Below, piece after piece: positions 3,080 through 29,606 of a stretch of DNA of 32,943 nt. The number at the start of each line of letters is the position of its first letter. The first letter of the stretch is position 1. Source of the DNA: a virus (lineage: Duplodnaviria; Caudoviricetes). The notes below the pieces were generated by a model that had not been told where the DNA came from, searched no databases, and was given only the letters and a program-made list of their open reading frames with translations. Both the position numbers and the translations under genes were made by a program. The DNA is taken from the IMG/VR virus record IMGVR_UViG_3300033153_005598, positions 1 through 32,943 of that record. One strand, written 5' to 3'.

Positions 3080-3240
3080 TAATCTTCTCCTACGGGTTTT
3101 CGGGCTTCTTTAAGACATTTTGTACAGATAACAATATTGTAAAAATGCTTCTTTAGGCGTTTGTGAAACAACGGCTTATCACGGAATCGTACAGAAGCCT
3201 GGGCCTTCCCGCATAGATCACAAACGCCATATTTAGCCAT
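3079..3240 (-). CDS. 53-aa zinc-finger-like protein (not in ORF track)
   Basis: Hand translation MAKYGVCDLCGK...VICTKCLKEARKPVGED*; two CxxC; fills the gap with overlapping ends. Confidence 0.7.
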   Translation of the reverse strand: MAKYGVCDLCGKAQASVRFRDKPLFHKRLKKHFYNIVICTKCLKEARKPVGED

Positions 3241-3607
3241 TTAGTTTCTCCTGGTATTCTCTGATCATTTCTTCAAGTTCAGCGTTGGAAAATTTACGCA
3301 GATTCTTATACTTAGCATGAAGGCGATCATAAGCTGTTTTTCCGAACGTCCCCAAAAACCAGTTAGTGAGGGGATAGGGATCGTATTCATGCTTCAGATT
3401 GCACGATGAGCATTGTGCGAAAGCGTTATCGGGGTCCCACCGGGTACTGTAACTCTGCCTACTGAACAGATGTCCACACTGCAAGTTGTCTCTTGATCCA
3501 CAGGTTACACACCGTTCGTCTCGCTGCCTAATAAACCGGCTAAATACATTATCCAATCTTCCTACTAGGCACTTTCTTTTAGATTTTTTCAACGATTTTA
3601 CCCGCAC
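3233..3607 (-). CDS. ninG: NinG/Rap-family HNH-type structure-specific endonuclease
   Basis: FSRFIRQRD..CVTCG...CGHLFSR...TRWDPDNAFAQCSSCN signature. Confidence 0.85.
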   Translation of the reverse strand: MRVKSLKKSKRKCLVGRLDNVFSRFIRQRDERCVTCGSRDNLQCGHLFSRQSYSTRWDPDNAFAQCSSCNLKHEYDPYPLTNWFLGTFGKTAYDRLHAKYKNLRKFSNAELEEMIREYQEKLNG

Positions 3608-4052
3608 TGAATGTCCTCCATTGCAAAATTATGTCTTGAATGTCTGTTTGAGCATCAAGACACTCGTTGATTGTTCCCCGAATCAGGTTGTACATCTCGT
3701 TTACAGACAGCTCGTTTGTGCTTACTACAAATAAGAATTTTCCATCGGGGGTTTCTACTATCTGGCCATGTCTTTTGCTAGTTAGGCCGTGCTCAATAGA
3801 ATACACAACCCCATGGCGTAGCTTAAAATCCATTTTGACCTTTTCTCGGGAAAGATTGTTTTCTTTGCGGTAAGCATCAACCAGGGCATGAAATAGACGA
3901 AAAGCTTCTTCGCTTCGTTTGGCTGGAAGGGGCTCAATGGTCATGCGGAGTCTGATCCCTTCGGTGAGATTATTCTTATACATTGCCAGATCACCGGGAG
4001 AATCGGGGATGATTAATCCCCTCTTAAACGTAGCGGCTCCTACAAATTTCAT
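3579..4052 (-). CDS. NinB/Orf-like recombination accessory protein
   Basis: RSEEAFRLFHAL...VKMDFK...STNELSVNEMYNLI pattern; adjacent to ninG; ATG 4052 is in ATGA overlap with the upstream gene. Confidence 0.55.
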   Translation of the reverse strand: MKFVGAATFKRGLIIPDSPGDLAMYKNNLTEGIRLRMTIEPLPAKRSEEAFRLFHALVDAYRKENNLSREKVKMDFKLRHGVVYSIEHGLTSKRHGQIVETPDGKFLFVVSTNELSVNEMYNLIRGTINECLDAQTDIQDIILQWRTFSAGKIVEKI

Positions 4053-4810
4053 ACTATCCGTACCTCGCCATGCCATTTACCTATCTTGTTTTTTACCCCC
4101 CAACATTCATCACGATAGCCGCAGTAACTACAATTCCAATCCCCTTTGTATTCACGGCCCTTGTGTTGAAACTTGTCCTTGATTTTTCCATCAACGATAG
4201 ATGCTACATATTCCCTAGGGGGAAGCTCGTTGTCAGACAGATAGTGCTCTACAATTTGGAATCTCATAAGCAGATTCCTGAATCTATGCTCGGTCTCATC
4301 GTTTTTCTGGATTGTGAAAATAGTACGATAGGCGTTGTCACGGCCAAGATAAAAAAGATATCCTTTCCTGCAATCGGACATGTGGAGATAAAGGACTAGT
4401 TGGTTATAATGATCTTCTTTAGGCGCCCCGCTTTGCTGGATGTTCTGAATTCCCCGCCCGTAGGAGCTTTTTACTTCCAATATCTCCCAGGGAGCTTCCC
4501 CGTCCCTAAATCGCACATCAATTCGTCCCTTGATGGGGTATTTCAAAGCTGGATGCTCAAGGAATACTTCAACTTCTTCTTCGACTTCATAACCCGCGCC
4601 CCGGAGCAGATCGGGGATGATCTTGTGGATAGAATTCCCCATGCCCATTTTCCAAAGTGCTCCGGCTTCAATAGGGTTTGAAGGTTCTCGGCCCTTCCAC
4701 TTGTACCAGGCTTGTCTCGCACAAGCAGTACATTCGGAAGGATAGTGGTTAGTCTTTTCCCGCTTCTCGTGTTGTAGCAACACCTTGTCGAGCTCATCTA
4801 TCAGGTCCAT
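4049..4810 (-). CDS. Cas4-like PD-(D/E)xK exonuclease (solo, no CRISPR context)
   Basis: N-terminal CARQAWY, GRID, EVKS, QLVLY and C-terminal CSYCGYRDEC, giving a four-Cys Fe-S arrangement. Confidence 0.85.
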   Translation of the reverse strand: MDLIDELDKVLLQHEKREKTNHYPSECTACARQAWYKWKGREPSNPIEAGALWKMGMGNSIHKIIPDLLRGAGYEVEEEVEVFLEHPALKYPIKGRIDVRFRDGEAPWEILEVKSSYGRGIQNIQQSGAPKEDHYNQLVLYLHMSDCRKGYLFYLGRDNAYRTIFTIQKNDETEHRFRNLLMRFQIVEHYLSDNELPPREYVASIVDGKIKDKFQHKGREYKGDWNCSYCGYRDECWGVKNKIGKWHGEVRIV

Positions 4811-4826
4811 TACGTTCTCCTTCTAC

Positions 4827-5048
4827 TTATGAGAGATTAACGTGTTTACCAAGTCCCGCTTCAAACCAAGAACAATCATTATTTTTATTAATATCTTTAG
4901 GACTATTTTCGAAAAGATCAGCCTTTGCCCGATATGTATCTTTTCTGTTTTGTGGTGCCCGACACCATTCTCGGTAACTGCCTAAAACGCCTATAAAAGT
5001 TTTGAAATATCTACAATTTATGCAAAAGATCTTCTCATTCTTTGTCAT
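4827..5048 (-). CDS. small Cys-rich hypothetical protein
   Basis: CINCRYF...C...NKNNDCSWFE; GAGGGG RBS. Confidence 0.7.
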   Translation of the reverse strand: MTKNEKIFCINCRYFKTFIGVLGSYREWCRAPQNRKDTYRAKADLFENSPKDINKNNDCSWFEAGLGKHVNLS

Positions 5049-5059
5049 GTCATCCCCTC

Positions 5060-5761
5060 TTAATCTCCTTTAACGGCTTTGTAAGCAATCTCGACTAAAT
5101 TGATATCGGCAATATTGGAAGCATAGGAGGCGGCAATGGCAGTGTCGTCCGCGGCATCGCCTGCATAGGCAGCATAGACGAGATCGGCAACATAGGCCGC
5201 ATCAGAGGCATGAGAGGCGGCCTCGGCCACAGCACCCGCCGCATCAGAGGCATGAGAGGCGGCCTCGGCCACAGCACCCGCCGCATCAGAGGCATGAGAG
5301 GCGGCCTCGGCCACAGCACCGCCGTTGTAGATACTGCAAGCGGCGATGCAGGCGACACGGCTGTTTCTATTTTCCCCATTTAACCAATCATTCGCCCATT
5401 TGGTCCATGTTCTGTCTTTGCATACTTTCTTTGCACAGAGAATAGCAAACCGCACCGTCTGCTCTATCGTTATCCGTGGCATATCTATGCGCTTTATTGT
5501 GGTCAGTTTTTTACATCCAACCTTCAGGCCCCTGTCATTTCTGCCGATCTCGCCCTCACACTCCCACATATGTCCTGTGTATGTATCATATTCGCCATGT
5601 ATGGGATTCATCAGCACCGCTAAAATCGGATCAGTATATGCATGTATCCAGTGCTTAGTACACAACCTACCTTTCCCATCTGCCGTGTGGGTCACGCCCT
5701 CTCCCCATTGGCAGTCTCCATAGGTCTGGTCGTTTTTATCAGTCAGCTTGTACAGTTTCAC
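5060..5761 (-). CDS. Ala-rich-tail paralog family protein (copy 2, intact)
   Basis: GTG at 5761 after AGGAG; KLYKLTDKNDQTYG...WIHAYTDPILAVLMNPIH; Ala-rich C-terminus. Confidence 0.8.
   Translation of the reverse strand: MKLYKLTDKNDQTYGDCQWGEGVTHTADGKGRLCTKHWIHAYTDPILAVLMNPIHGEYDTYTGHMWECEGEIGRNDRGLKVGCKKLTTIKRIDMPRITIEQTVRFAILCAKKVCKDRTWTKWANDWLNGENRNSRVACIAACSIYNGGAVAEAASHASDAAGAVAEAASHASDAAGAVAEAASHASDAAYVADLVYAAYAGDAADDTAIAASYASNIADINLVEIAYKAVKGD
5196..5320. repeat. 42-bp tandem repeat x3 (GAVAEAASHASDAA)
   Basis: Unit gccgcatcagaggcatgagaggcggcctcggccacagcaccc starts at 5196, 5238 and 5280. Confidence 0.95.
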
Positions 5762-5898
5762 TTCTCCTGTTCCTTTCCCCAATACCCAGTTGATATATTA
5801 ATGTCAATGTTATAATATAATGCGCCGCTACCCACTGGCCTCTTTAACAGCGGATGTATGCTTTTTCATACATATTAAAGTATACGCGCGGCGCCTAA

Positions 5899-6138
5899 TT
5901 AAAATATATCGTCTTGTTGGTGTGTCTGTTGTCGGGGTTGTCCTTGGGGCTGAGCGGGCTTTGAAATAAACACACTCATATCGGGTGATTTGTCACTCCT
6001 TTTTTGTTTGTTCCTAAACACCACAACCCGTATTTCCTGCCCCCCAACATTAATGATACCGGACATATACCGGGTACCACCCTTGCTCGTTTTTACCCAC
6101 AAAGAACCTATGCGATTGTTGCTGTCTTGGTCGCTCAT
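5899..6138 (-). CDS. small SSB-like (DUF736-like) protein
   Basis: IGSLWVKTSKGGTRYMSG...FRNKQKRSDKSPD, Q/P-rich linker and acidic-aromatic tail DDIF; ATG 6138 after AGGAGG. Confidence 0.6.
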   Translation of the reverse strand: MSDQDSNNRIGSLWVKTSKGGTRYMSGIINVGGQEIRVVVFRNKQKRSDKSPDMSVFISKPAQPQGQPRQQTHQQDDIF

Positions 6139-6146
6139 ATTGCCTC

Positions 6147-6392
6147 CTATACTTCCTCCCAAATGGGATCTTGGTATACACAATTATAGTTATAATGCCT
6201 TTTGTATGTTTTGCATACTGCATCTACAATATCTTCCACTACGCCATCTTTAAGATGCTCAGCGATGTTTTGATCCCCATTTGTTGAAATTATTAAGTGC
6301 CAGCCTTCTTCGGTTAGAGGGTTAAGTTTTCCTGCCACTTGATATTTAATACCATCAACATCAACAGAACCAATCGAAAAGCTTACTTCCAT
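6147..6392 (-). CDS. hypothetical protein
   Basis: ATG 6392 (MEVSF) after GAGGT. Confidence 0.6.
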   Translation of the reverse strand: MEVSFSIGSVDVDGIKYQVAGKLNPLTEEGWHLIISTNGDQNIAEHLKDGVVEDIVDAVCKTYKRHYNYNCVYQDPIWEEV

Positions 6393-6405
6393 AGCTACCT
6401 CATAA

Positions 6406-6490
6406 TAAAAATACCCGATGCGTCCCAACGGGGCACACCGGGTATAAGGAGGGTGATCATCAACACTTGCGCTATTCGCTCAATTTGCAT
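6406..6490 (-). ncRNA. candidate ~85-nt small RNA or leader carrying an anti-Shine-Dalgarno
   Basis: Bounded by a consensus promoter and a terminator; contains GAUCACCCUCCUUA. Confidence 0.45.
6407..6445 (-). terminator. rho-independent terminator
   Basis: Minus strand ATACCCGGTGTGCCCC-GTT-GGGACGCATCGGGTAT (two G-U pairs, one mismatch) followed by TTTT. Confidence 0.75.
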
Positions 6491-6496
6491 ATTCAA

Positions 6497-6525
6497 ACCA
6501 TATCACAAAACAATTAAATTGTCAA
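6497..6525 (-). promoter_or_regulatory. sigma70-type promoter
   Basis: TTGACA-N17-TATGGT with extended -10 TG. Confidence 0.75.
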
Positions 6526-6544
6526 GTAGTTTCTTTAAGTTTTT

Positions 6545-6973
6545 TTAGTGTCTGTCCTGCACTCCTTTGAACTTTTCATATGTTCTCATACCGGCCAAGC
6601 CCAACATTCCAAAAAGTAACGTCATTAAAGGGGCCATGTCTATAGGGGGCATAGTTAGGCCCACTATTTGTGATAGCAGGGGTGCTATCAAAAAATGATA
6701 AGCTAGGGCAATTCCACACACCCATAAAATAAAGGGGCGAGCCCCGGCTACAAAGAATCGTGCTGATCTCGCCGCCGCTGCATTTACTTCTGCTTGTGCT
6801 TTTGCTATATCAACCTCCATCTGGGCCAAGGCCATATCAAATTTTGCTTGTTCGTCCGGGGGAAGATTCTTTGCAAAAGTGTTGCGGATATTACGGGTTG
6901 CGCCTGACAAAGTAGTAATCGTTTCTCCCACAACCTTAGCGCCGCCGGCGCCTAACCACGAAAAAATCCCCAT
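6545..6973 (-). CDS. holin (3-TM, GTA-holin-like family)
   Basis: FFVAGARPFILWVCGIALAYHFLIAPLL...LLFGMLGLAGMRTYEK signature. Confidence 0.85.
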   Translation of the reverse strand: MGIFSWLGAGGAKVVGETITTLSGATRNIRNTFAKNLPPDEQAKFDMALAQMEVDIAKAQAEVNAAAARSARFFVAGARPFILWVCGIALAYHFLIAPLLSQIVGLTMPPIDMAPLMTLLFGMLGLAGMRTYEKFKGVQDRH

Positions 6974-7080
6974 ACTTTCCTCCAGATTCTTATTATATTA
7001 TCCCACAGAAAGATGATATATGTCTCCAAAAATACACCTATCACCCACAACCACCAAAAAACGATCCTATATCGTTTCAT
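6952..7080 (-). CDS. 42-aa hydrophobic peptide (not in ORF track)
   Basis: MKRYRIVFWWLWVIGVFLETYIIFLWDNIIRIWRKVWGFFRG*; ATGA overlap with the upstream gene. Confidence 0.5.
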   Translation of the reverse strand: MKRYRIVFWWLWVIGVFLETYIIFLWDNIIRIWRKVWGFFRG

Positions 7081-7397
7081 TCCTCTTTCTCCTTCAATTC
7101 ACGATACCGCTTCAACGCCGTAGTGGAGCATACTCCTAATAGTCTAGCCACTTCTGTATGCTTCTTGATCGGCCAATAGCGAAGCAGTAAGACGTCTTTC
7201 TGTGGGGTCCAGTCAATTTCAGCAGGTCCCTTTGCGGAAGGCAGAGCATCAAAGGCTTTAAGGGTTTCTTCGTCAATCTCAACCTGAATTATATGGTTGG
7301 AATTTCGATGCGTTGGTCCAAATGGGATAATATTATTCTGTTTCCCATTTCTTTTAGGTTGCTTCTTTCCCCAAGATGTATGTCTAATCTCGTCCAT
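7077..7397 (-). CDS. protein with C-terminal Myb-like HTH
   Basis: WTPQKDVLLLRYW...HTEVARLLGVCSTTALKRYREL; ATG 7397 after AGGGGG. Confidence 0.6.
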   Translation of the reverse strand: MDEIRHTSWGKKQPKRNGKQNNIIPFGPTHRNSNHIIQVEIDEETLKAFDALPSAKGPAEIDWTPQKDVLLLRYWPIKKHTEVARLLGVCSTTALKRYRELKEKEE

Positions 7398-7405
7398 GTT
7401 TCCCC

Positions 7406-7912
7406 CTATGCTTCTACCCATCTTCGGATCTCATCAAGACCAACTGGGTAATAATCCCATGAATCCACACCTATGTCTAAAACTCTATCAGGAGGATTTG
7501 TTAGGCGGCCGTGACTGTGGCCGTGTAACATGATGCTACCATAATGAGATCGGGGCCAGCTTAACATCGGATAATGACAAACAACAACATATACATCCCC
7601 TATCTTCCGCTCCCAGAGGAAGGGTAAGTTTGTGCCCCATTTGTCATGCGAGCCTTGTAGAAACACATGATATCCATTAAGCTGCTCGATAATCTCCCCC
7701 ACTTTCTTCTTGGCTGCCAGGGCAAAATCACCGGCGTGAATTACGGTATCATTCTTGCCCACTACTTCATTATGCCGCCTAATTAATTTTTCATTCATCT
7801 CTTCAACTGTAGTAAACGGTCTTTGAGTATATTTAAGAATGTTCTGATGAAAATAGTGCTCGTCGGCTGTAAAAAAGTAGTTAGGCGTCGCGCTGCGACA
7901 CTCTGGTTTCAT
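7406..7912 (-). CDS. calcineurin-like metallophosphoesterase
   Basis: FTADEH, AGDF, GSHD, CHYP and HGHSH motifs; start re-assigned to ATG 7912. Confidence 0.85.
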   Translation of the reverse strand: MKPECRSATPNYFFTADEHYFHQNILKYTQRPFTTVEEMNEKLIRRHNEVVGKNDTVIHAGDFALAAKKKVGEIIEQLNGYHVFLQGSHDKWGTNLPFLWERKIGDVYVVVCHYPMLSWPRSHYGSIMLHGHSHGRLTNPPDRVLDIGVDSWDYYPVGLDEIRRWVEA

Positions 7913-8081
7913 ATTTTTTCTCCGCATCTCGGCAGGCGCGGTCGGCATCATCTTCTTGGTCAAAATAACCGACGTATATTTGCCTTCCGTCAACCCAGAT
8001 TCGGCCCTGCCATTTCTTATCGCGATAGTGCCAACAGACGCCCCTGTAGATTGAGCTTCCATTTCTCCCAAGCCCCTCCAT
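7881..8081 (-). CDS. stand-alone AP2 DNA-binding domain protein
   Basis: SSIYRGVCWHYRDKKWQGRIWVDGRQIYVGYFDQEDDADRA is the AP2 signature; no HNH domain attached. Confidence 0.8.
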   Translation of the reverse strand: MEGLGRNGSSIYRGVCWHYRDKKWQGRIWVDGRQIYVGYFDQEDDADRACRDAEKKYETRVSQRDA

Positions 8082-8095
8082 GATAGTTTCCCCCT

Positions 8096-8857
8096 CTATA
8101 TAACTTTCTCGTATTCCCTCTTGACTACAATTCTTAGGGGCATTATAAACTTCTGAATATCTACCTTCTCTTTAGAGACCTCAAACAATAACAAGCCTAT
8201 ATCATAATAGAAAGGTCTGCATTTCCGCCCAAACACGTTTAGGGGCACCTGGAAACATGGTGTGGAGATAGCCACCTTATTCGCGCTTTCCATGCGGGTA
8301 AAATAGTGAATGTGACTCCGCACTGTAAAATCTGCCGCCTCCCTATCCTCAAAGGTGGCCCTCATCATGTCCCGGACGGCTTCCTTAAATAACTGCGTAC
8401 CTTGTCCATAGGGAGTGGTGCTATTACCTACGACGTGTCTAAAATTAAATTTCCATTCTTCTATATGCAATAATTGTGTGTCTTTGATAGATCCGTTTAA
8501 AGCGTCGGCTAAGGGTTCCTCATAATTATAAGAACCTACAGAATGAAAAGGCGAACCAAATGTGAGATACCAGCGGTTTGTCTTGATTTTTTCAAACACG
8601 GTTTCGGCGATTTCTACCTGTTTCATCGTATCGGTCGTTAACTGCTCGATATCTTCTCTTTTGCCTTCTCCGTCTAGGCCGTCACCATTTAAGACGGCCA
8701 CATCCACCGGGCCTATGTCTTTTATCGTTTTCTCGTACCAGTCCCACATCGGTTTTAGTACCATAGCCGTATCGGGAGGTATCCATTCGGGGGGTGTTAG
8801 ACCCAACCGACTACCTATATGGGTATCTGCTATCACCAATATCCGTTTTGTTTTCAT
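8096..8857 (-). CDS. metallophosphoesterase-fold protein
   Basis: IADTHIG, NGDGLDG, GSPFH, FRH and RSHIH motifs. Confidence 0.75.
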   Translation of the reverse strand: MKTKRILVIADTHIGSRLGLTPPEWIPPDTAMVLKPMWDWYEKTIKDIGPVDVAVLNGDGLDGEGKREDIEQLTTDTMKQVEIAETVFEKIKTNRWYLTFGSPFHSVGSYNYEEPLADALNGSIKDTQLLHIEEWKFNFRHVVGNSTTPYGQGTQLFKEAVRDMMRATFEDREAADFTVRSHIHYFTRMESANKVAISTPCFQVPLNVFGRKCRPFYYDIGLLLFEVSKEKVDIQKFIMPLRIVVKREYEKVI

Positions 8858-8866
8858 GTACGCCTC

Positions 8867-9286
8867 CTATCGGAGAAGTTTGAATATCCTCTTACTAATT
8901 AGGCGCCCTTCTGTCACGGCCCTGCTCACGCCCCAAGGGTCGTAAGCCACATGGCCTTTCCCGTCTCCCGTTACAAAATGCCTCCAACCTCCTTTTTTGA
9001 ACATGAGAATCTCTATTTCGTCTTTTTTGCAATCTTGGTTAGGCGGCAAATGCTGGTCATAATAATACACGGGTAGACCCATGAAATCGAATATTGCCGC
9101 TGGATCTCGAATATAGGCATCCTCTTCCATGAAACCCCGGTCAATTAGAATCTGGAATATTTCGTTGATCATCCCCGTGCTGATCTCGCAATTGGTATAT
9201 TTATTGACAAGGAAAAGGATAGATAGCAAATAGCAACCGTAACGCCGGATGGTAGGATTTAGGCGTGGGTCACGCTGGAGTATCAT
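8867..9286 (-). CDS. DUF261-like papain/C39-type Cys peptidase, candidate endolysin
   Basis: ILQRD...RYGCY, HFV and YDP give a putative Cys-His-Asp triad; located directly after the tail genes. Confidence 0.6.
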   Translation of the reverse strand: MILQRDPRLNPTIRRYGCYLLSILFLVNKYTNCEISTGMINEIFQILIDRGFMEEDAYIRDPAAIFDFMGLPVYYYDQHLPPNQDCKKDEIEILMFKKGGWRHFVTGDGKGHVAYDPWGVSRAVTEGRLISKRIFKLLR

Positions 9287-9299
9287 AATCGTACCTCTA

Positions 9300-9328
9300 T
9301 TTATAACATAGATTTATCTTTTTGTCAA
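9300..9328 (-). promoter_or_regulatory. sigma70-type promoter
   Basis: TTGACA-N17-TATAAA upstream of 8867..9286. Confidence 0.75.
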
Positions 9329-9333
9329 GACGT

Positions 9334-9537
9334 TTATTCCTGTAGGGTTTCAACCAAGGATTCAATATTATTTACTTTTTCTTCTATCCTATATAATATC
9401 GGGATGATTTGATCTATTAGGCGCTCGGTTCGGTTCAACCGGGCATTAACCTGGCCAAAGGCAAAACCGCCTAACAAAACAACTAAGGCAAGAACAATAG
9501 TAAGAATTTTAGGTAGTACACTTGGCTTCTCGTTCAT
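9334..9537 (-). CDS. single-TM coiled-coil protein (lysis accessory candidate)
   Basis: ILTIVLALVVLLGGFAFG then heptad-like C-terminus. Confidence 0.65.
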   Translation of the reverse strand: MNEKPSVLPKILTIVLALVVLLGGFAFGQVNARLNRTERLIDQIIPILYRIEEKVNNIESLVETLQE

Positions 9538-9562
9538 TTATTTTCCTTATCTTTTCCAGATT

Positions 9563-9811
9563 TCATTTTGTCATTTTCGCCTCTATCATTTTGTTTTCCA
9601 ACTTCGCCAACCTGGACTCAAGCTTGGCTATTTTCACGTCTCTCGGATCAAGGGACTCTACATAATCTTTGCCCCCGGGTTCCATGTCTCGGATGTGCTG
9701 CGGAATCTTATCAACGATAACAAATCCGGCATCGAGCTTAGCTTGGTCCACCTTCCGCCCCACAGGGCTGTATTCAACTCCGTCTGGATATTCTTTCAAG
9801 TAAAATCTCAT
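9563..9811 (-). CDS. hypothetical protein downstream of tail fibre (possible assembly chaperone)
   Basis: ATGA overlap with the tail fibre stop; C-terminal coiled coil. Confidence 0.65.
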   Translation of the reverse strand: MRFYLKEYPDGVEYSPVGRKVDQAKLDAGFVIVDKIPQHIRDMEPGGKDYVESLDPRDVKIAKLESRLAKLENKMIEAKMTK

Positions 9812-10977
9812 AATAAGTACTCCACGGGATAAGCGACATAGATATCTGTGCCGGTATCTGTGACAGCGAACTGAGCCTTATAGCCACTGCTTAACCAAAT
9901 TTCCATCAATCTGCGACCACCCCAGCCAATCTGATGAGACTCCTCACCGCTCGCGCCAGGTGTATTGGAGATGTTAGTATCGCCAGATTTCCGATAAAAT
10001 AAATAACTTGCTACTGTTAGTTGCACGATGTTTACCCGCACCGCCTTCGTCCCGACAGGCACCACGCTGGAAAAGTCTACTTCCAGCCCACCTGGGGTAA
10101 ACTGATCTGCTGTCCACCCGCTGGTTTTAATGGCAAGCCAGCCGGTGGGGGGATCGGCTATTTTTACCCAACCAGTTTTCCCTGGTCCCGATATCTCGCT
10201 TCCTAACCAAATTGTTCCGTCCCCTTTAGCTGTCAAAATGAGGTCTTTGAGTGTATCAATACCGGCCGAACCTACCCATTTTTGGCCAACGGCAGCGTGG
10301 TCTTTCATCTCAGTCAGTTGATAATTAGTTGAGTTTGTAATATAGGCCCAGTCGTCAATACATGCACCGTCTTGCAGATGAAAGTGCAAAGAACTTCCGG
10401 TGGCTATTGGATGGGCAGCTATATTCACCTCAGTGCTCCAACCGTCAACTGTAAATCCCCATTTTTGTTGACCACTTACATCTCGAACAGTAAGCCCGAT
10501 ATGATGATATTGCTCAGAAAGTGCCGCTCGGTCTTGAATGGGGGAATCAGCTCCCACGATCAAACGATACCCAGTAGACGTATTGTACAAGCGCATTCCC
10601 GAGAGAGAAGAGGTCATTACACGGTTATTAGTGCCGGAACTTGCTACAGCACAAAATAAGCCTAACTCGGGAGACCAGCACACAGAATACCAAATATTAT
10701 CAGCAGCACTAGATCGAGTAGTCCAGTTAATTCCATCTGGGGAAGTCATCACCCGGTTGCCGGTACCACTATAAGCAACAGCACAAAATAAGCCTAGTTC
10801 AGGAGACCAATAAACACTAAGCCAGTTATTATCAGCAGCACTAGATCGAGTAGTCCAGTTAATTCCATCTGGGGAAGTCATCACCCGGTTGCCGGTACCA
10901 CTATAAGCAACAGCACAAAATAAGCTCAATTCGGGAGACCAGCATATAGAACTCCAAGAATTATCAGCAGCCTCCAA
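9808..10977 (-). CDS. tail fibre/receptor-binding protein, C-terminal part (after frameshift)
   Basis: Three 43-aa WSPELxLFCAVA repeats continuing those of the upstream ORF, then a beta-rich domain. Confidence 0.7.
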   Translation of the reverse strand: MEAADNSWSSICWSPELSLFCAVAYSGTGNRVMTSPDGINWTTRSSAADNNWLSVYWSPELGLFCAVAYSGTGNRVMTSPDGINWTTRSSAADNIWYSVCWSPELGLFCAVASSGTNNRVMTSSLSGMRLYNTSTGYRLIVGADSPIQDRAALSEQYHHIGLTVRDVSGQQKWGFTVDGWSTEVNIAAHPIATGSSLHFHLQDGACIDDWAYITNSTNYQLTEMKDHAAVGQKWVGSAGIDTLKDLILTAKGDGTIWLGSEISGPGKTGWVKIADPPTGWLAIKTSGWTADQFTPGGLEVDFSSVVPVGTKAVRVNIVQLTVASYLFYRKSGDTNISNTPGASGEESHQIGWGGRRLMEIWLSSGYKAQFAVTDTGTDIYVAYPVEYLL

Positions 10978-12989: not shown

Positions 12990-15900
12990 TACAATCCTAA
13001 CCTCTTTTGGCGCTTGATACTGCGCTTGATATATTCCGCCTTTCTCTTGGAATATCCAGGTAATCTTTTCATCTGTTTGTATCGCTCTTCTTCGGCTGTT
13101 TTCAATACATCCCGAGCCTCGTATTGGCGCTGTTCCTCGATATCCAACGTCTTCATTTTGACGCCTAAATAGAAAGAAAGTATCTGAAATACTTCTTCTA
13201 TCTGCTCATCCGCCTTCTCGTAATCTCCTACCGCACCGGCTTTGTTCTTCACTTCCTGCAAGGCGGGAAATATAGCTTCGGGTAGGTCAAAGTATTGCGG
13301 GATTCGTTTCAGAAACAGGACGTTGTTTTCGAGTGCTTTCACAACTAGGGGATTGAGAGTCAATTGGCCCTCTTCGTTTACATCCGGGTCAAGCCCCCGC
13401 TCCCATCCGGCCAGACGTAAAAATCCGTCAAGCCAAGTTAAAATCCTGGCATCTCCGTCTTTGCCCGCCAAAATACGCATCAGACGCGGAGAGGAAAGGT
13501 TATCATCAAGGGGAGTACCTTTAAACACATCACGCCTACCCACCATTTCAACGGCCGTCTTGATCAAAGGATGGGCGTTTGAGACAACATCTCGCAATAT
13601 TTCATCCCCGCCCCATTTCGGTACAGGAATCCCCCCGGTGCTCATCTCAAACTTCAAGGGGATCTTGTTAACGTCCATATAAGGGGTGTTGGGCCAGAAC
13701 ATCTTGGCCTCGCCCTCTTCCACCTCAAAAGGAATATACCCCAAATCCCGCATCCAGTTCGGCATCTCTGATTTCTCTACCCCGGGAGCCCCTTTGCTAA
13801 GCTTGGGGATCATACTATACATTTCTCTAAAGTCAAACATGCCCTGAATTTGGTTTGCTAGGTTGAGGCGAATCCAACTGTAGAATGGGATTATGTTTTT
13901 CATTACCTTTTGCTCGAAGGGACTAAGATCATCATAGTCCAAGAACCATTTCTTCGCCTGCAAAGATGCGTATTCCATAGCAGTCTCCGGGGCACTGCCT
14001 TGCTTGAGGGCTCGTTTGTAATCAAGCATGAAGGAATGAAACCTTGCGGTATTTTCAACATACATAGAAAGGGCATAACTACCCTGCAAAAGACCAAACT
14101 CTTTGCTCATAGGATTTATTTTTTTAAAGGCATCACCTTGTTTTAGTACGCCCTCTAGTGTTTTAGGCGCATCAAACCCCATGACATGGCGAGCGATAAC
14201 CCCCTTGCGGGTAGCATATGCTGCCAATTCTTCCAGGCTTTTCCCCCCATATATCCGGGACAAAATGCCTGTTGCCGTGGCCTCGTCAACTCCTTCGGCA
14301 ACAAGTTTCTTGAAAGCATTTTTTCTTTCAAGCCCCGCTATGGTCCCGGCCCATGCTTCAAAATTATCTCTTGGATTAAACCATTCCGCACCGTGTTTAA
14401 GAATTCCCGTGACGTTGTTCGAATAATGGTTTCTCCAGTGAAACCCCGGAGAGGCAGTCGCCCATGCTTTCCACCAAGCGGTAAAAGACCCAATCCACTG
14501 TGCGGCGGTTCGCAAAGTCTCGTCACTTGCTGTAATTTTTATAGCCTTTCCCAATATTTCGGATGTTTCCTTGTCAAACAAGTATCCTTCTAGCGCATCA
14601 TCAGGGATTGCTTGTAGGCCAAACTGTTGCAAAACGGTTTGATTATTAACCATGATCCGGGCAAGCTCGTCATCCATTTCAGCAGCCTGTTTCAGATTAA
14701 AACCCATTTCCCGGATTTGTTTTATGATAGAAGCTCTTTGTTCTAGGCGCGCTTGGGCCATGCCACGACCTAACAACATTTGATAAAGGTCTGTTTGGAG
14801 ATCTCCCGCTCCTTCCCTTACCAGTGATTGAGCTGCTTCGTCGCTGATCTCGGGGAAAATAAACTTGAGTTTGGCCGCCTCGCTAGCAATATTCTCTTCA
14901 AATCCTGCGGTACGGGCAAACAAGAATCCGGGATGCCTGGCTGTAATTGGGGTAGGCGCTTTTTTGTAGAACCCCGTGCCTGTTCTACGGACCGGAAGGT
15001 AATTCTCAATCTCCCCAACCTCTTTGATAATCCCGTCTTGCACGAGTTCTTCCAGTCTTTTGCGCCACATGGCCGTTAGATTATTGATAGAAGCGACAGT
15101 CTCTACCACAAGATCAATCTTGTCCGTCGCTACTCCCATTTCAAGGGCCATTTTGCGAAAGTCTACCGCCTCCCCCTGAGCCGTTATTAACAACTCTCGT
15201 ACCGCCCGCATACTGTTTTCATCTAAGGGCTTTAATAGATCCACCAAACCCTGTTGTGTACGAGCTATGGTATCGGTTGTAGCTGCTTTAGCGTCCTGGA
15301 CCGTGCGGGCTAAGATTTCCTGGTAAGGATTGCGGATATTGAACATCTTTTTCAGCTTCCCTACCACGCCTTTGTTCATCATAGCCCACCAGGCATCAGA
15401 GAAATACCCACCTATCTTGCTTTTCTCAGTCCACCATTTACCTAGATTATCCCAGGCTTTCAGTATTTCTGGATACCGTTCACTTATGGCAAACTCTTTC
15501 CGCATGAATCGGGCCGCCCTGGTTCCCGCACCGGCATATGCACCTTTCTGCACTGACTCGGCTAATTCGTCTAGATATTTCAAACCGGTAACAGCTTCCT
15601 TTTTACTTACGTAACCGGCGACATGCTCATTAATCAGATCAGAAAGTCCTTTTGCGGGTCCATAGTCTGCATATTCTTTCGCCAGGTTTCTGATCTGGCG
15701 CTGTATACCCTCCTGCACTTTCTTGGCCGGGACTATCCGGGCCTCTGTTATCCTGCCTAGAGCTTTCTCTCGCAACTCTTTCTCGGGCAATCTTAGAGCT
15801 TCTTTCTTGGCCGCCTTTGTCACCTTTGCCATATGTTGAGAGATATCAACACCTACATTCTTTTGGAGTAATCGTAAGGCTTCTTGGGGATTTTTTATAG

Positions 15901-18774: not shown

Positions 18775-20696
18775 TAATATCTCCTTAACTCATAGTCCAG
18801 CGCAAATCCAGCTACCTTGGCGGCGCCTAGCTGATTGTGCTGAATCTTGAATCCTATTGCTTTTCCATCTAGTTCGTAAGGCACAGATACATCCGTAGAC
18901 CACCATCCTGAACCAACCGCTGCGGTCATGGTTGTAACCGCACTTGAGGTTCCATCCTGCCCATATACTGTTAATACGTAGGCGGCCCCAGTCGTACTTG
19001 CTACCTCTCCAACTTTGGGTTTTACCCTCCCAAAATGTTTAATCTTTTCAAAGTTTCCCATGGAATAATAAGGAGTCTGCACTTGCATGTCTATTGCTAC
19101 AGTACTTGAAACGCTGTCATCTGTGCCGTTATCACATCGCTGTAACATTGGGGAGCCAAAATTAGCAGCAGCGACTAAATATCCGGTATCACCGGCCCCA
19201 CCGTGATAGGCAAAAATATCCGCCCTGTAATTATCGAACTTCCAAAAACTTACCCTTCCATCACCCATATCGTCCTCGCGGAAAGTATCCGGGTCAAAGA
19301 TCAGCGTTGTCGAGTTGGAAGGAAAAGACATATATACCCAACCCTTATATATGATCGAAGCCACGTTAGAGGTTACCCAAGAATCTATATCGGATTGGAT
19401 ATGCTTACTTATCTTTAGGCGTTGGGCACCGTCCCACCGATAAATTCCGTCCCGGTCCATCATAAATAAGTCTCGATCTCTTACGACAACAGACCTTCCG
19501 CTCACCGTTCCGCCATCTACAAGGTATTTTTGATAAAAGTTAGCGAAAGAGTTTCCAAACAACCCATGAATCCCCCCATCTTTCACCGCCGCCAAATATT
19601 CGCCATGAGAAACTAGGGCCTTAATCTCGCGCCCTCCTTCTTCAAAATAGTACACATCTCCTGCCCGCCAATTGCTAGCAGAATGATAGGGTGAATGATT
19701 CAGCGTATTCTCAAATCCCAAAAAGTAATGATTTTTGTGCACCTTGACCGTTTTAGGTCTTTCGTCATCGAAAATCTGTGTCAAATATTGTGTATGTTTG
19801 ACTGTCAAATAATCACACACCGCCGTTGTCGAGGGGGCTGTAGTGAAGTACATCCTGAACACATATCTATTGTCAAGCTGGTCGATACTCAAATCCGAAT
19901 CTGCCACCGTCCAGTCTGTAGGATAATTCCATTCAACCGTCAAAGTTCCGGTAGCCGCCCCCAAGGCCAGACTCGTGACCATGCTACAGGTCCCCCAGGT
20001 GTCACTACCCTTGTAGTATTCATAGTTGAGCGCCAAATCAGAAGCCAGAGTATCTACTTCCGTGAATTCTATTTTATTAAATGTATAATCACAAGCAACC
20101 CATATACCATCGCTTGCGGTTGCCTGATTTAAATCAAAGTCATCAGTTCCTTCATCCCGGGCGTCTGTTGAGTCATCAATATATAAACTTGCAACATCCG
20201 ATCCGCTTTTGTCAAAATATCCCGCAAACCAATTCGTTGTGGCCCGTACTCTTGTGTCGTGTATTTCTAGATCATCTATGATCCAACCAGATCCATCATG
20301 GTACAGAAAAGCTGGTTTATCTACACCGTTAACCGCAATCACTTCCCCGCCTATTGCGTCCATCTCCACCTTGTTACCTGTTGTCCAGGTATACGAGGAA
20401 TCAATTGCGCTTACTCCTGTACCGGTAGAAGAATAGAACCCCACGGTAGACCCATCATCAACAGCCAAAATGGTCAACCAGGAAGTTGTTGTCGGTACAT
20501 AGCATCGGAAATATCCTTGTATCACGTCCGAGGCGGCCCAGGAATTGGTAGCATACATCCCTATCCCGTTGCGCTTTTCTAGAGTAGTATCCCAATAACA
20601 ATTTAAAGCGGTCAATAATTCATTTGGCTTGAGATGTTCGGAGGGTACGTTTGTGAAATACCCACCCCGAAAATCATCAATCGCTATAGTTCTCAT
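18774..20696 (-). CDS. tail nozzle / stabilisation protein (P22 gp10 / T7 gp12-like)
   Basis: N-terminal DDFRGG...LNC...LEKRNG; beta-propeller-like body; KISKHI; follows the adaptor. Confidence 0.7.
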   Translation of the reverse strand: MRTIAIDDFRGGYFTNVPSEHLKPNELLTALNCYWDTTLEKRNGIGMYATNSWAASDVIQGYFRCYVPTTTSWLTILAVDDGSTVGFYSSTGTGVSAIDSSYTWTTGNKVEMDAIGGEVIAVNGVDKPAFLYHDGSGWIIDDLEIHDTRVRATTNWFAGYFDKSGSDVASLYIDDSTDARDEGTDDFDLNQATASDGIWVACDYTFNKIEFTEVDTLASDLALNYEYYKGSDTWGTCSMVTSLALGAATGTLTVEWNYPTDWTVADSDLSIDQLDNRYVFRMYFTTAPSTTAVCDYLTVKHTQYLTQIFDDERPKTVKVHKNHYFLGFENTLNHSPYHSASNWRAGDVYYFEEGGREIKALVSHGEYLAAVKDGGIHGLFGNSFANFYQKYLVDGGTVSGRSVVVRDRDLFMMDRDGIYRWDGAQRLKISKHIQSDIDSWVTSNVASIIYKGWVYMSFPSNSTTLIFDPDTFREDDMGDGRVSFWKFDNYRADIFAYHGGAGDTGYLVAAANFGSPMLQRCDNGTDDSVSSTVAIDMQVQTPYYSMGNFEKIKHFGRVKPKVGEVASTTGAAYVLTVYGQDGTSSAVTTMTAAVGSGWWSTDVSVPYELDGKAIGFKIQHNQLGAAKVAGFALDYELRRY

Positions 20697-21658
20697 TAGT
20701 CCTCACTAGAAAACGTTACTTTGGGTACCAAAACAGGCTCGTGTCTCGGGAACATAGCCGGGTTTTGGTTATTATACAATCGGTTGTATTTTCGCACCTG
20801 GTCAAGATATCTTGAATACAGACGTTGTGCCCTTAGCTCTTCAAAGTTCATCTCTGCCTGTAGGGATGCTGCAAAATACAAGGGCATTAGCTGGTGCTCT
20901 GTATCGATGGTCATATCTACACTGCCTTGTGTTGCCGCATCCACCCAATCGGTGGGATAGTATTTATAAAAGATATGTAGACTTTTTTGGCTTCCGGGGG
21001 CTGGATATAGGCGTAGTCTCTTGCCATATACATGATATTGAATGGGCGTTCCCGTATATTCCGGAGAAACAAACAGCCCGAAGGGGGCAGGAGAAAGAGC
21101 GTTGTCGTCCCATTCAACCCGATACATCTGCAAGAAATTGTCAGGCAGCGAAACCTCAACCGCACAATCCAGGGGAAAAGACCCCGTACAGGTAGGTGCG
21201 GTGAAAGAAGCCGCACCCCCGAGAATGAGATTAAGGGCGTCAATATGCGTCGGAGCGGTAGGTTCCGCAAACACCGCCGAGCTTACCGTTGCCTCGAATG
21301 TTAAGGTGAAATACCAGCTCGCCGAGGCCCAGGAGATCGTACAAGTAGCGGCTTGAGCGGTTAGTGCGGTTGTAAGCTGTGTTGCCACCGTACCGGCCGT
21401 TGCGTTGATGTAATCCATGGTCGTAATCACCACATCGGTAGCCGTGCCACCGTTCAGCGCCAAAGAGAAAGCAAAGTCTGTCTGAAGATCAAACAAGGGC
21501 GTGATAGTCAGATAGTCTTCGGTTATCATACCATAGGCGTCTTTGGCGAACTCACGCTGTCCTTCGTTAATAAGCTGCATGATAGCAGTATCACTGGCAC
21601 CGCTTGAGTTTGTACGTGATAGTTCTCGCACCTTGGTAATTGCTTGAGATAAAGTCAT
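20696..21658 (-). CDS. head-tail adaptor protein with inserted domain
   Basis: MTLSQAITKVR...LINEGQREF and LPDNFL...LRLYPAP...Y motifs. Confidence 0.7.
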   Translation of the reverse strand: MTLSQAITKVRELSRTNSSGASDTAIMQLINEGQREFAKDAYGMITEDYLTITPLFDLQTDFAFSLALNGGTATDVVITTMDYINATAGTVATQLTTALTAQAATCTISWASASWYFTLTFEATVSSAVFAEPTAPTHIDALNLILGGAASFTAPTCTGSFPLDCAVEVSLPDNFLQMYRVEWDDNALSPAPFGLFVSPEYTGTPIQYHVYGKRLRLYPAPGSQKSLHIFYKYYPTDWVDAATQGSVDMTIDTEHQLMPLYFAASLQAEMNFEELRAQRLYSRYLDQVRKYNRLYNNQNPAMFPRHEPVLVPKVTFSSED

Positions 21659-21678
21659 TATTTACCTACTCTAAAATA

Positions 21679-21702
21679 GTTAGGCGCCCGAGGACGCCTA
21701 AC
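21679..21702 (-). terminator. hairpin built from two opposed TTAGGCG motifs; probable terminator
   Basis: Minus strand GTTAGGCGTC-CTCG-GGCGCCTAAC followed by TATTTT. Confidence 0.65.
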
Positions 21703-21704
21703 CT

Positions 21705-22034
21705 TTAATATCCCGTATATCCCGTAAATCCAAATAGCGCATAATGCGTGGCATCTATTATTGCATATAGGGTTGCGCCTGAGTCAATCTTGAGCCCTCT
21801 ATCACCAAAATTGATGTTCTGCAACCCTATGGCCGTTGCATCAACAGACCATATCACCGTTGTCGAAGATCCGGCACAGATATTGATCTTTTTACCCGTT
21901 GTGATGCCGCACACATTCACAAACCCATAGCACAGGTATACACAATCGCTTCCCGGAGGGTTCATTAGAGTAGTAGTTCCCGTGGTCGTAAGAGCCCCGT
22001 ACGTAGCCCAATACGCCTGATTGCTAATACTCAT
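21705..22034 (-). CDS. small virion-associated protein
   Basis: Beta-rich T/G-rich ORF in the head gene cluster. Confidence 0.6.
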   Translation of the reverse strand: MSISNQAYWATYGALTTTGTTTLMNPPGSDCVYLCYGFVNVCGITTGKKINICAGSSTTVIWSVDATAIGLQNINFGDRGLKIDSGATLYAIIDATHYALFGFTGYTGY

Positions 22035-22382
22035 TTAGAATCCCCATGCAAAGAATGTTACCGCAGATACTGTTGCCATCGAGGTATCAGTCGGTACTTC
22101 GGTCATCGGTTCCGCCACGGTCATAGTGGCAGATGCATCCAACTGACCGATATAATAAGCTTTCAGCTTACCACTTACATACCGAAAGGTGTATCCGTTG
22201 GCGGGTTCGGCAAGCACTCCTTTTACGGAAGCTAACTGCGGGATAGTGAACGTCGCCCCCCCATCGGGATAGGTCGCCGCATAATCAAAAGAACCGTACA
22301 CGATTTTAAGGTTTTGGCCTGCGTGAGAGTTCAAATCATACGCATTAAACGCATATCCGTCTGGTACTACTGTTGCTGCCAT
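22035..22382 (-). CDS. small virion-associated protein
   Basis: YPDGG...GYTFRY...KLKAY...FFAWG; GGAGG RBS. Confidence 0.65.
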   Translation of the reverse strand: MAATVVPDGYAFNAYDLNSHAGQNLKIVYGSFDYAATYPDGGATFTIPQLASVKGVLAEPANGYTFRYVSGKLKAYYIGQLDASATMTVAEPMTEVPTDTSMATVSAVTFFAWGF

Positions 22383-22403
22383 GTTCTTTCCTCCATTTTA
22401 TAA

Positions 22404-22428
22404 TTAGGCGCCCAGGGGGGGCGCCTAA
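22404..22428. promoter_or_regulatory. intergenic inverted repeat of two TTAGGCGCCC arms
   Basis: TTAGGCGCCC-aGGGG-GGGCGCCTAA, perfect 10-bp stem; no clear U-tract. Confidence 0.6.
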
Positions 22429-22431
22429 CTC

Positions 22432-22884
22432 TTAGTCTGCACCGTCAATGCGGACCGGGAAGAGAAGAATGTCATAGGTAGCTGTCGAGCCCGTGGTCTG
22501 GAATACTCCAAACTCGTTGTCGCCTCCCGCCGGGGCTGCTCCCGCTGTCACAATCGCATCTGAAGCGAGTTTAACCGCATGTCCTACCGTGCCCGTGGTT
22601 GTGGTGATAACGGCATCAGAGCAGTAACCGCCAATCTGGAACCACCCATAGTCGCCAGACGAATAGGTTGATTTTGCAATACCAACGTACTGTAACATCT
22701 GCACATCGCTGGTATCGGCAACCGCTGTAGCGGTCCAACCATATTGCCCGAACATAACCGCATAGGCATTCTTCTTGGTGGCGCCGGCCGTTGCGTAAGC
22801 ATATAGCCATACGCTACCATCACCGTCGTATTTGGGCTGTAGGGAACCGACACTCCCTCTTTTTCTATCCTGTAACCAAGCCAT
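22432..22884 (-). CDS. capsid decoration/cement protein
   Basis: Directly after the major capsid gene; GIA....SGDYGWFQIGG motif. Confidence 0.65.
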   Translation of the reverse strand: MAWLQDRKRGSVGSLQPKYDGDGSVWLYAYATAGATKKNAYAVMFGQYGWTATAVADTSDVQMLQYVGIAKSTYSSGDYGWFQIGGYCSDAVITTTTGTVGHAVKLASDAIVTAGAAPAGGDNEFGVFQTTGSTATYDILLFPVRIDGAD

Positions 22885-22895
22885 GCTACACCTCC

Positions 22896-23840
22896 TTAAC
22901 TAGCGTAATTCAACGCCGTAAACTTCCCAGAAGTTCGGCGCATCTTACACGCGAGGTTCAGGGCTACCGTCATAACACGAGCCATCGCGTTCGGAAACCC
23001 GGCCTGTTCCAGTTCAAACCAATCCTTCAGCTTGAAGTTAAAGTCCGGATGGACCCAAAACTCGTACTGATTGATATCCAAACCGTACCATGCACTCGTG
23101 GGAGTGAATGAATCCGGTGTAATTGTTGCACCCAGAAATTTACAGTTATCAAATCCCGCTTCTGCCAGGGTGTTGTCTTTGTAGACCTTCTGCCCCTCAA
23201 ACAGAGACATGAACTTGCTGTAGAGATCACGGGTGGTGATGTGAAAGTCCGGTCTGTTTTTGCCGAATGTGCAGTCGTTTATCATCTTGGAAATGCTGGT
23301 AGAACCATAAAGAGACAGAACCGTAGCGGTCGCGTCATTGAATGGAGAGTACCAGGTAGAGGCATCCCCGTCGTCGAGTCCGGCATATGTTCCGGTTCCC
23401 ACAATAGTAGAAAGCGTTTCAATACCTTTCCCATTCGGGTTCGAAGTCCACAGGTCCGTGGCGAATCTGTAGAAAATGTCCTCTTTCATTTCAACTGCCT
23501 TGTTGGCCAACAGATCAACAACCTTTTGTTTGCCGGAGTTCTTAACACGTTCATCCCAAGAAATTAAAGCCTGAGCATAATAATACACCCAGTCCAACTC
23601 GGGAGAAGTGCGAGTCTCCAACTGTTCGTAGCTAAGCTGTTCCCGTGCACCAACCGCATCGGCCTTGTCCAATCTCTTGTATCGAATGGGCCAACGCAAT
23701 TTTGTTCCGCCCTTAACCTTTACCAAGTTATTTTGCTTCATCTTCGTCCACAGGGCATGATCGTCATACGCCTGTTGGGTCAGGGGGGTATCATAATAAT
23801 ACCGGGATACAGCATTCGCTTCCTCTATGGAAAGAGCCAT
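22896..23840 (-). CDS. major capsid protein (HK97 fold, inferred)
   Basis: 314 aa after the scaffold; GGTKLRWPI, NSGKQKVVDLL, GTYAGLD, PDFHITT and AEAGFDN motifs. Confidence 0.85.
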   Translation of the reverse strand: MALSIEEANAVSRYYYDTPLTQQAYDDHALWTKMKQNNLVKVKGGTKLRWPIRYKRLDKADAVGAREQLSYEQLETRTSPELDWVYYYAQALISWDERVKNSGKQKVVDLLANKAVEMKEDIFYRFATDLWTSNPNGKGIETLSTIVGTGTYAGLDDGDASTWYSPFNDATATVLSLYGSTSISKMINDCTFGKNRPDFHITTRDLYSKFMSLFEGQKVYKDNTLAEAGFDNCKFLGATITPDSFTPTSAWYGLDINQYEFWVHPDFNFKLKDWFELEQAGFPNAMARVMTVALNLACKMRRTSGKFTALNYAS

Positions 23841-23843
23841 CTG

Positions 23844-24629
23844 TTATCCTCCTTGAGCATCTCTTAGAGCTGCCAACCTCCCTTCCTCAATAGATTTGAA
23901 CTTTGTTTCAGAAGGTGGCGCACCCTTGGGCGAGGTCGTTTTTACCCCACCCTTTTGTTTTAGTTTGTCTGTTATTTTTCTCTCCACTTCCAGGGGTGAT
24001 TTCTCACCTCTTTCGGCGTGATATAACAGACGGGCAAGGACCTCGAAATCAGCATCGCGCAAACTGGCAAGTCGTTCTTCAATCGTCTGGGGGTTGAAAT
24101 CAGGTAATTCTTGTGCAAGCCGGGAAAAAACATCGCCTTTTTCCCGCTCGATTTCCTGTTGTTTCTTCCACTCTTCAAACTCTTGAAGTTTCTTTTCGAT
24201 CTCGCCTGTTTTGTCGTTCACCAAACTTTCCGCCCTTTGATACGCAACTTCGGGAGATGGAGGTTGGTTCAACATCCGCTGCAAGGTTTGATATGCATCG
24301 GGCCGTGATTTCAGGAAATTGTCATAATGTTCATATTCCTTAACCTTGGCCTGAAACTCCTTTTCACGGTTCTCAATCTCCTTCATCTTTTGGTCATACT
24401 GTTTGCGTAGCTGGGCGACGCTCTGGGTTTTCCGGGTGTAGTCATCTTGGCGCAGATAACTATCCTTCCAGGCTTTTTCAAGTTCCTCTTTTGTTTTGAA
24501 CTCCTGATCCCCTAATTTGAGGGGAGTCCATGTGTTCGTTTGCCCTCCCATGGGGGGCACGGCTTGTCCCACTTCGGGGGCCGGTGCAGCTTGTCCCGGA
24601 TCGGGGGCTACTACTTGTTCGTCAGCCAT
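23844..24629 (-). CDS. capsid scaffolding protein
   Basis: YLRQDDYTRKTQ motif and coiled coil, upstream of the capsid gene. Confidence 0.8.
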   Translation of the reverse strand: MADEQVVAPDPGQAAPAPEVGQAVPPMGGQTNTWTPLKLGDQEFKTKEELEKAWKDSYLRQDDYTRKTQSVAQLRKQYDQKMKEIENREKEFQAKVKEYEHYDNFLKSRPDAYQTLQRMLNQPPSPEVAYQRAESLVNDKTGEIEKKLQEFEEWKKQQEIEREKGDVFSRLAQELPDFNPQTIEERLASLRDADFEVLARLLYHAERGEKSPLEVERKITDKLKQKGGVKTTSPKGAPPSETKFKSIEEGRLAALRDAQGG

Positions 24630-24639
24630 TTAAGGCTCC

Positions 24640-24981: not shown

Positions 24982-25166
24982 TTGATACCTCCCGGCTGTA
25001 GTACTAGATTAATATAGCAATTACAAATTGCCATAGTGTTAAAAGATTTATGCACCATCATTGTTGTAATTAACTATGATAAATACAATTAAATTTTAAT
25101 ATGTTAATTATCCCATGAAACCATTTGCAAAAAATGGATTTGCTTTCAGTATGTCCATTGCATTAC

Positions 25167-27542: not shown

Positions 27543-27566
27543 ATCTAGCTCCTTTGAAATATCACT

Positions 27567-29552: not shown

Positions 29553-29606
29553 AAAAAAAATAAGGATATACGAATTCCGCATAACTTTTACGGATTCCGC
29601 ATATCC
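29553..29606 (-). terminator. long hairpin plus U-tract upstream of the packaging/structural operon
   Basis: Minus strand GGATATGCGGAATCCGTA-loop-TGCGGAATTCGTATATCC then TTATTTTTTTT. Confidence 0.8.

Follow-up and report, generated by a model that had tools for sequence, protein, structure and literature searches.

A 16S rRNA 3'-end-like element between a predicted promoter and terminator of an uncultured phage: a possible cis-acting leader of the recombination operon

Background

Between the holin gene and the recombination genes of an uncultured phage lies what looks like a short transcription unit, with a promoter, a near copy of the 3' end of 16S rRNA and a terminator, 12 nt upstream of an operon. 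Does such a unit act on the operon behind it, does it give off a small RNA that acts elsewhere, or does it only start and stop transcription? An initial annotation of the DNA had left the choice between a trans-acting sRNA and a cis-acting attenuating leader. The cis leader is the better supported of these two, and the trans sRNA is left without decisive support.

We analysed the entire virus record of 32,943 nt, which is called the window in the following. The phage is of podovirus type, encodes P22-like portal, terminase, capsid and tail genes, and has all its annotated genes on the minus strand. The holin is the final gene of the structural/lysis block and the recombination block lies downstream of it. 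Judged from sequence and predicted folds, there is about an even chance that the unit is an attenuator-type leader gating the recombination/replication operon in cis. The coordinates of its parts are given in Table 1.

Table 1. Features of the leader and its neighbourhood in the window.
Feature	Position	Strand	Remarks
Holin (GTA_holin_3TM)	6545..6973	-	PF11351, E 1.8e-14; phrog_3427
Sigma-70-type promoter consensus, TTGACA-N17-TATGGT with TG extension	6497..6525	-	Predicted; same in G001
Putative leaderless upstream frame, 31 codons	6395..6490	-	ATG at predicted +1; no PHROG or Pfam hit
16S-3'-end-like 14-mer GAUCACCCUCCUUA	6445..6458	-	One insertion (extra C) relative to the canonical 13-mer
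Long terminator-type hairpin, 3-nt loop	6411..6445	-	Arms 6445-6430 and 6426-6411; 15/16 pairs
U-rich tract, 8 U in 10 nt	6404..6413	-	Predicted 3' end of the ~86-nt RNA
Shine-Dalgarno GAGGU of the first operon gene	6397..6401	-	Predicted to be hidden in read-through RNA
First putatively gated gene, 81-aa protein without family	6147..6392	-	Acidic relatives
DUF736-like small protein	5899..6138	-	Atlas feature score 0.95
Recombination genes: Cas4-like/PD-(D/E)XK exonuclease, NinB/Orf-like, NinG/Rap	3233..4810	-	PHROG/Pfam annotation

Search for homologs

One homolog of the locus was found, in the complete record G001 (44,911 nt with terminal repeats), which is about 95-97% identical to the window and has ~10.7 kb that the window lacks. 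A 17-mer search of IMG/VR gave three matches, namely G001 and two unrelated ones, and G001 was the only syntenic locus obtained with the holin, the 81-aa protein, the Cas4-like exonuclease and the 8096-8857 protein as queries. One locus, L005, was read among 19 other holin loci and has no such element. The metagenome scan returned a single 2-kb contig, which ends short of the element, and no match to a GenBank phage spanned more than 13% of the 301-nt query. Searches with terminase, capsid and DUF261 did not identify the host. Thorarchaeota were not adopted as host, as this label rests on the source annotation of one DUF261 relative.

Architecture of the leader

The minus-strand promoter described in the initial annotation was located, with TTGACA at 6525-6520, a 17-nt spacer and TATGGT at 6502-6497, matching the consensus at 10 of 12 positions and placing the predicted +1 at about 6490. 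Promoter-like matches as such are not above chance in this DNA (10 were found in 4000-10000 with 12.2 expected), and the weight therefore rests on position: the consensus is intergenic, 20 nt past the holin stop, like the other TTGACA-N17 sites of the phage.

No credible open reading frame had been seen between promoter and terminator, and this did not hold. An ATG at 6490, 7 nt past the -10 box, opens 31 codons that run through the hairpin to a TAG at 6397-6395; this stop overlaps the GAGGU and is separated by 2 nt from the AUG at 6392. An AUG at +1 with an open frame arose in 2.1% of 20,000 leader shuffles. The 31 codons include no Cys, and neither a polycysteine run nor a run of any other sensing codon is present. 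The single change of G001 in the gap switches one codon of the frame from Pro to Ser while improving the stem, and thus no constraint is visible on the peptide.

The likeness to the 16S rRNA 3' end, with one extra C, was confirmed. Taking as reference the canonical 13-mer quoted in the initial annotation, TAAGGAGGGTGATC at 6445-6458 is the sole one-edit match on either strand of the window, where 0.015 such matches are expected by chance per strand (200 Markov runs), and shuffling the leader 200,000 times produced a likeness of this kind 7 times. In the fold of the terminated 86-nt RNA the 14-mer is predicted to be mostly unpaired, with values of about 0.9 for CCCUCCUU and 0.5-0.9 for GAUCA. 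On the plus strand no ATG follows at the distance of a ribosome-binding site (RBS), as had been noted before; only GTG (spacing 0), ATC (spacings 3 and 6) and TTG (spacing 13) occur there. An rRNA fragment or an attachment site was considered and rejected, as the likeness does not extend past the 14-mer and neither an Rfam hit nor a tRNA was found.

The hairpin has a predicted energy of -23.9 kcal/mol (z -4.44), a stability reached by none of 200 shuffles, and is followed by UAUUUUUAUU. Its position and strength were as first described; of the 16 pairs then assigned to the stem, 15 are formed in the window. The remaining C-A mismatch becomes a U-A pair in G001 (6433), which gives 16 of 16. The whole 86-nt RNA folds at z -2.63. 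By sequence the site has both elements of an intrinsic terminator, a stable GC-rich hairpin and a U-rich tract, and termination is predicted, although a simple terminator scan did not report it. It is the first strong terminator-type site past the holin: between the holin stop and the unit, the terminator list for G001 holds no strong hairpin with a U-tract. The element had no match to an Rfam covariance model with an E value of 1 or below. A bidirectional terminator of a convergent type I toxin was also rejected, the plus strand having neither a U-tract nor a toxin-like gene led by a Shine-Dalgarno sequence (SD).

Predicted gating of the operon

The GAGGU begins 3 nt past the U-tract, which leaves no room for another promoter, and polymerase can therefore enter the operon only by reading through. 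For the read-through transcript, pairing is predicted between GAGG and the CCUC at 6452-6449, which belongs to the 14-mer, and the SD is left unpaired with a probability of only 0.02-0.05. The pairing probability is 0.95 in the G001 copy, which agrees with the pairing to the RBS of 6147..6392 that had been suggested at the outset. Two observations have to be set against this. An SD hidden to an unpaired probability of at most 0.05 is also found in 16% of 200 shuffled leaders, and the cis pairing engages just 4 of the 14 bases, so that ten unpaired 16S-like bases remain unexplained by a cis gate.

We propose that the leader would have two locks. The hairpin would halt, at about 6405, most of the transcription that comes from the leader promoter and from the late operon, and the ~86-nt RNA would be the prematurely terminated product. 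In those transcripts that read through, the CCUC would pair with GAGG and conceal the ribosome-binding site. The key would be a ribosome initiating at the leaderless AUG: it would cross the hairpin, block its folding and terminate 2 nt short of the following AUG, and in passing it would open both locks and couple translation of the frame to that of the operon. A refolding of the RNA alone, as in a riboswitch, was rejected, since no antiterminator fold competes (the best terminator-free fold has -17.6 kcal/mol versus -33.5), and opening the gate would therefore fall to a ribosome, a protein or a nuclease. A phage antiterminator, or cleavage of the long stem by RNase III, could serve as key instead of the ribosome, and these are not separable here. 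If the cis model is true, entry into recombination and replication would be tied to host ribosomes translating a leaderless mini-frame through a terminator.

The first gene behind the putative gate gave eight hits, among them three relatives of full-length type at 33-47% identity. Relatives of this 81-aa protein carry very acidic tails; that it is a DNA mimic or a counter-defence factor is a guess only. The clusters matched by the DUF736-like protein have PF05284 in 23-33% of their members, and the protein itself has no direct Pfam hit.

A second unit in G001

In the part of G001 that the window lacks, a second unit is found at 24669-24795 (L029 14669-14795). Its TTGACA-N17-TAGTAT is followed by an ATG, again at the +7 offset, which opens a 38-codon frame across a long hairpin; after a U-tract come GGAGG and then the AUG of an HNH gene, behind which lie glycan-synthesis genes. 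Pairing is predicted between GGAGGUUUU and an upstream AAAACCUU, a hiding of the SD matched by 9% of 200 shuffled leaders, which again counts against the cis gate, and the unit has no 16S-like match. A +1 AUG with an open frame occurs in about 2% of shuffles here, as for the unit of the window, and none of four other intergenic TTGACA-N17 sites that were read has an ATG at this offset. The layout shared by the two units is the main reason why the cis reading is preferred, and it is a pattern noticed after the fact. The cis model, if true, would describe a protein-free sensor of the translational state of the host, used twice in a single genome.

A third site lies at 29563-29607 (minus strand) of the window, where a long hairpin and a U-tract precede AGGAGG and the AUG of gene 29542-29132. 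No promoter-like site is listed ahead of it, and for this reason long hairpins before genes may be ordinary punctuation of this phage. The glycan-synthesis cluster of G001 extends over 20300-29100 (L029 10300-19100), with genes for NeuB, a PAPS-reductase-like protein, a B12 radical SAM protein, an MptE-like protein, a cytidylyltransferase, a DegT aminotransferase and a short-chain dehydrogenase.

Recurrence of the layout in IMG/VR

IMG/VR was scanned for the promoter consensus followed, within 15-45 nt, by an anti-SD 10-mer or a permuted control. This gave 90 loci with the canonical 10-mer, 29 with the extra-C 10-mer and 51 with the control; after clustering, and with the G001 copy dropped, 82 anti-SD and 28 control clusters were obtained. 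When a hairpin with a U-tail was required, the counts at three cut-offs were 12 versus 1, 10 versus 0 and 8 versus 0, none of them significant (p 0.18, 0.062 and 0.11). Dropping the U-tail, a looser test that was chosen afterwards, a strong hairpin was found in 20/82 anti-SD clusters and 1/28 control clusters (p 0.013). The test is confounded: an anti-SD word is in many cases the RBS of a gene on the other strand, and thereby flags intergenic DNA. Nor is it a test of conservation, since the loci were picked by the motif itself. The analogous loci have too few relatives for a non-circular test of conservation. Among 401 genomes in an unrelated phylum sample, one locus (L202) matched the pattern.

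Of the 20 hairpin clusters, four have a downstream SD-led ORF, with pairing to the anti-SD predicted for three. Opposite-strand ORFs of at least 40 aa are present in six, one of which has both kinds, and at a longer spacing in one more (L057); ten have neither. The complete series of promoter, anti-SD, hairpin and paired downstream SD with an ORF is seen in the unrelated phage clusters L035, L037/L052 and L145 (3/82 clusters). An opposite-strand SD and AUG with a frame of 3-8 codons occur in L094, L100, L037 and L052, and L037 and L052 each have an opposite-strand AUG with a frame of 3-4 codons to the same stop. This shows that the layout is not unique and that it is put to at least three uses. 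At 20 chosen loci, comprising 19 analogues and the G001 copy, no Rfam gathering score was reached, and PHROG gave no hit for three proteins encoded downstream at analogous loci.

Promoter consensus, anti-SD and strong hairpin are found at about 400-520 (match orientation) in the unrelated phage loci L036, L069, L094, L100, L104, L126, L128 and L142, which, having no explanatory flanking gene, are candidates for stand-alone anti-SD RNAs.

Comparison with known systems

In lambdoid leaders (pR'-tR', N/nut, HK022 put) a promoter is followed by an intrinsic terminator, which gives a short abortive RNA and is subject to antitermination. Promoter and intrinsic terminator ahead of an operon are common to these leaders and our unit, but here neither a nut, qut or put element nor an antiterminator gene was identified, and the unit has a putatively leaderless frame and an anti-SD in addition. 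C-rich anti-SD sRNAs such as RsaE/RoxS and cuckoo have their own promoter, an exposed pyrimidine-rich seed and a terminator. In contrast to these, the single linear seed of the unit directly abuts an operon on the same strand, and there is no Rfam match. Compared with attenuators of the trp/vmlR type, a frame overlapping the terminator is present and a mutually exclusive antiterminator helix is absent.

Leaderless short ORFs of mycobacteria, of which Ms5788A is an example, are reported to govern an RBS-hiding structure (bioRxiv 10.1101/834739; also PMC9031893). Their leaderless AUG, short upstream frame and RBS-hiding structure have predicted counterparts in the phage leader. Measured against this type, the phage leader has its AUG 7 nt after the -10 box and a predicted pairing of 0.95, but the SD is hidden in 16% of shuffles as well. 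It differs from the type in having no polycysteine tract and a terminator within the frame, and its gate would be opened by a passing ribosome, not by a stalled one. In T4-type phages, hairpins that sequester the RBS precede I-TevI, segB, mobE, soc and e, the RBS being freed by a late promoter that lies within the structure (PMC2988022). As there, the leader described here would hide the SD of the next gene, and the second unit of G001 precedes an HNH endonuclease gene; unlike there, no late promoter is recognisable and a terminator lies between anti-SD and SD. In function, the unit would be most like the mycobacterial leaderless attenuators together with the RBS-hiding hairpins of T4-type phages.

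P22 sar and P1/P7 c4 are short phage antisense RNAs that block a ribosome-binding site (PMC5415839 and PMC12197685). Our unit differs from these in lacking a gene with a standard start on the other strand, a long complementary target within the phage and a match in Rfam.

Alternative explanations

The unit could also be an ordinary promoter beside the terminator of the late operon, passed by leakiness or by a phage antiterminator, with the 16S likeness and the frame due to chance or left as a relic, which we consider somewhat unlikely. In the form of a relic, the likeness or the frame may have been left from a lost plus-strand ribosome-binding site. This explanation is consistent with the hairpin being the first strong terminator-type site after the holin, and with the finding of a single near-identical homolog in the collections searched. 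At 3.5e-5 per leader, several chance cases of the 14-mer would moreover be expected over some 250,000 windows. Against it stand the local rarity of the match and the repetition of the layout in the second unit of G001. Conservation speaks for both sides: the 152-nt gap differs from G001 only at 6433, with 1/152 differences against 45/994 nt in other intergenic DNA (p 0.023), but as 33% of all 152-nt windows differ at no more than one position, we regard this as weak evidence and the gap as not special. If neither a cis nor a trans role is true, an ordinary promoter and terminator is what remains. It is highly unlikely that the RNA is a cis-antisense RNA of the Sok/sar type, directed against a plus-strand mRNA with the RBS TAAGGAGG and an AUC-started frame of 29 codons (6459-6548). 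The plus strand does read as a near-perfect RBS, with ATC 6 nt past GGAGG and the 29 codons open, and analogous loci carry an opposite-strand ORF of at least 40 aa in 6 of 20 cases as well as the short opposite-strand frames of L037/L052. However, AUG, GUG and UUG are all missing at usable spacing, the promoter-like sites of the plus strand include none in 5820-6445, and no annotated gene of the window is on that strand.

With only 4 of the 14 bases engaged in cis, a role in trans for the terminated RNA is conceivable. The open 16S-like tail of the ~86-nt RNA would pair with strong SDs and dampen translation, the targets being host or late phage mRNAs, possibly alongside a cis role; we judge this to be unlikely. 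In its favour, the predicted fold of the terminated RNA leaves the seed accessible, the 14-mer is far longer than the cis pairing requires, hairpins are enriched in the IMG/VR clusters by the looser test, half of the 20 having neither a downstream SD-led ORF nor an opposite-strand ORF of at least 40 aa, and an attenuator RNA able to act in trans is known from rnTrpL (PMC6614838). On the other hand, the enrichment loses significance once the U-tail is required and is confounded, with anti-SD words marking intergenic DNA; the extra C disrupts the canonical register; and the second unit has no 16S-like match. Pairing with RBSs of the phage, which had been put forward as a check, revealed no convincing target among 38 genes of the window or in G001. 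RBS-region duplexes of the former reach at best -12 to -13 kcal/mol. The best non-self duplex in G001 has -25.1 kcal/mol, against -22.8 +/- 1.0 for 11 shuffled queries of which none reached it, and its site consists of internal codons of an HTH gene that differ in the window. That the leader is a cis gate whose 86-nt product also serves in trans as a general SD decoy mimicking the 16S tail is a doubtful extension, and equally doubtful is what it would add, an uncatalogued phage RNA class of promoter, anti-SD and terminator with about ten unrelated stand-alone candidates in IMG/VR. Should the trans role be true too, a copy of the 16S tail could blunt the translation of strongly SD-led mRNAs in general. 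Literature searches in an open-access collection, which does not extend to subscription journals or supplements, gave no phage RNA described as a 16S-tail mimic of this kind.

Other observations in the two genomes

A three-way-junction RNA is predicted after the DUF736-like gene (window 5821-5895, minus strand; G001 14283-14360), which in G001 directly precedes the Cas4-like gene. In one 8-pair helix, all five differences between window and G001 keep the pairing; four pairs change, one of them on both sides, which in a comparison of two sequences is not above shuffles. The RNA has no Rfam match, and at the corresponding place in L027, which is a more distant relative, another kind of multibranch fold is predicted. 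Thirty nt of it (5853-5882) recur with 90% identity at 2273-2302, inside gene 2086-2856.

The 8-mer CGCCTAAC/GTTAGGCG has 27 copies in G001 with 1.1 expected, and GCGCCTAAC has 12 copies in the window with 0.2 expected. Copies of the repeated 8-mers occur in both orientations, within and between genes, and two form hairpins, at ~21683 and 22407-22420; the repeat is possibly a protein-binding site.

Finally, the 1-kb segment 4811-5820 of the window, with a 73-aa ORF and a DUF7666 gene, lies between the DUF736-like and Cas4-like genes and is absent there in G001. The DUF7666 gene is found in three pieces in the window (in the regions 4811-5820, 181-802 and 32847-32943), and 720-802 is an exact inverted copy of 32861-32943. 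These pieces point either to mobility of the gene or to mosaic assembly at the left end.
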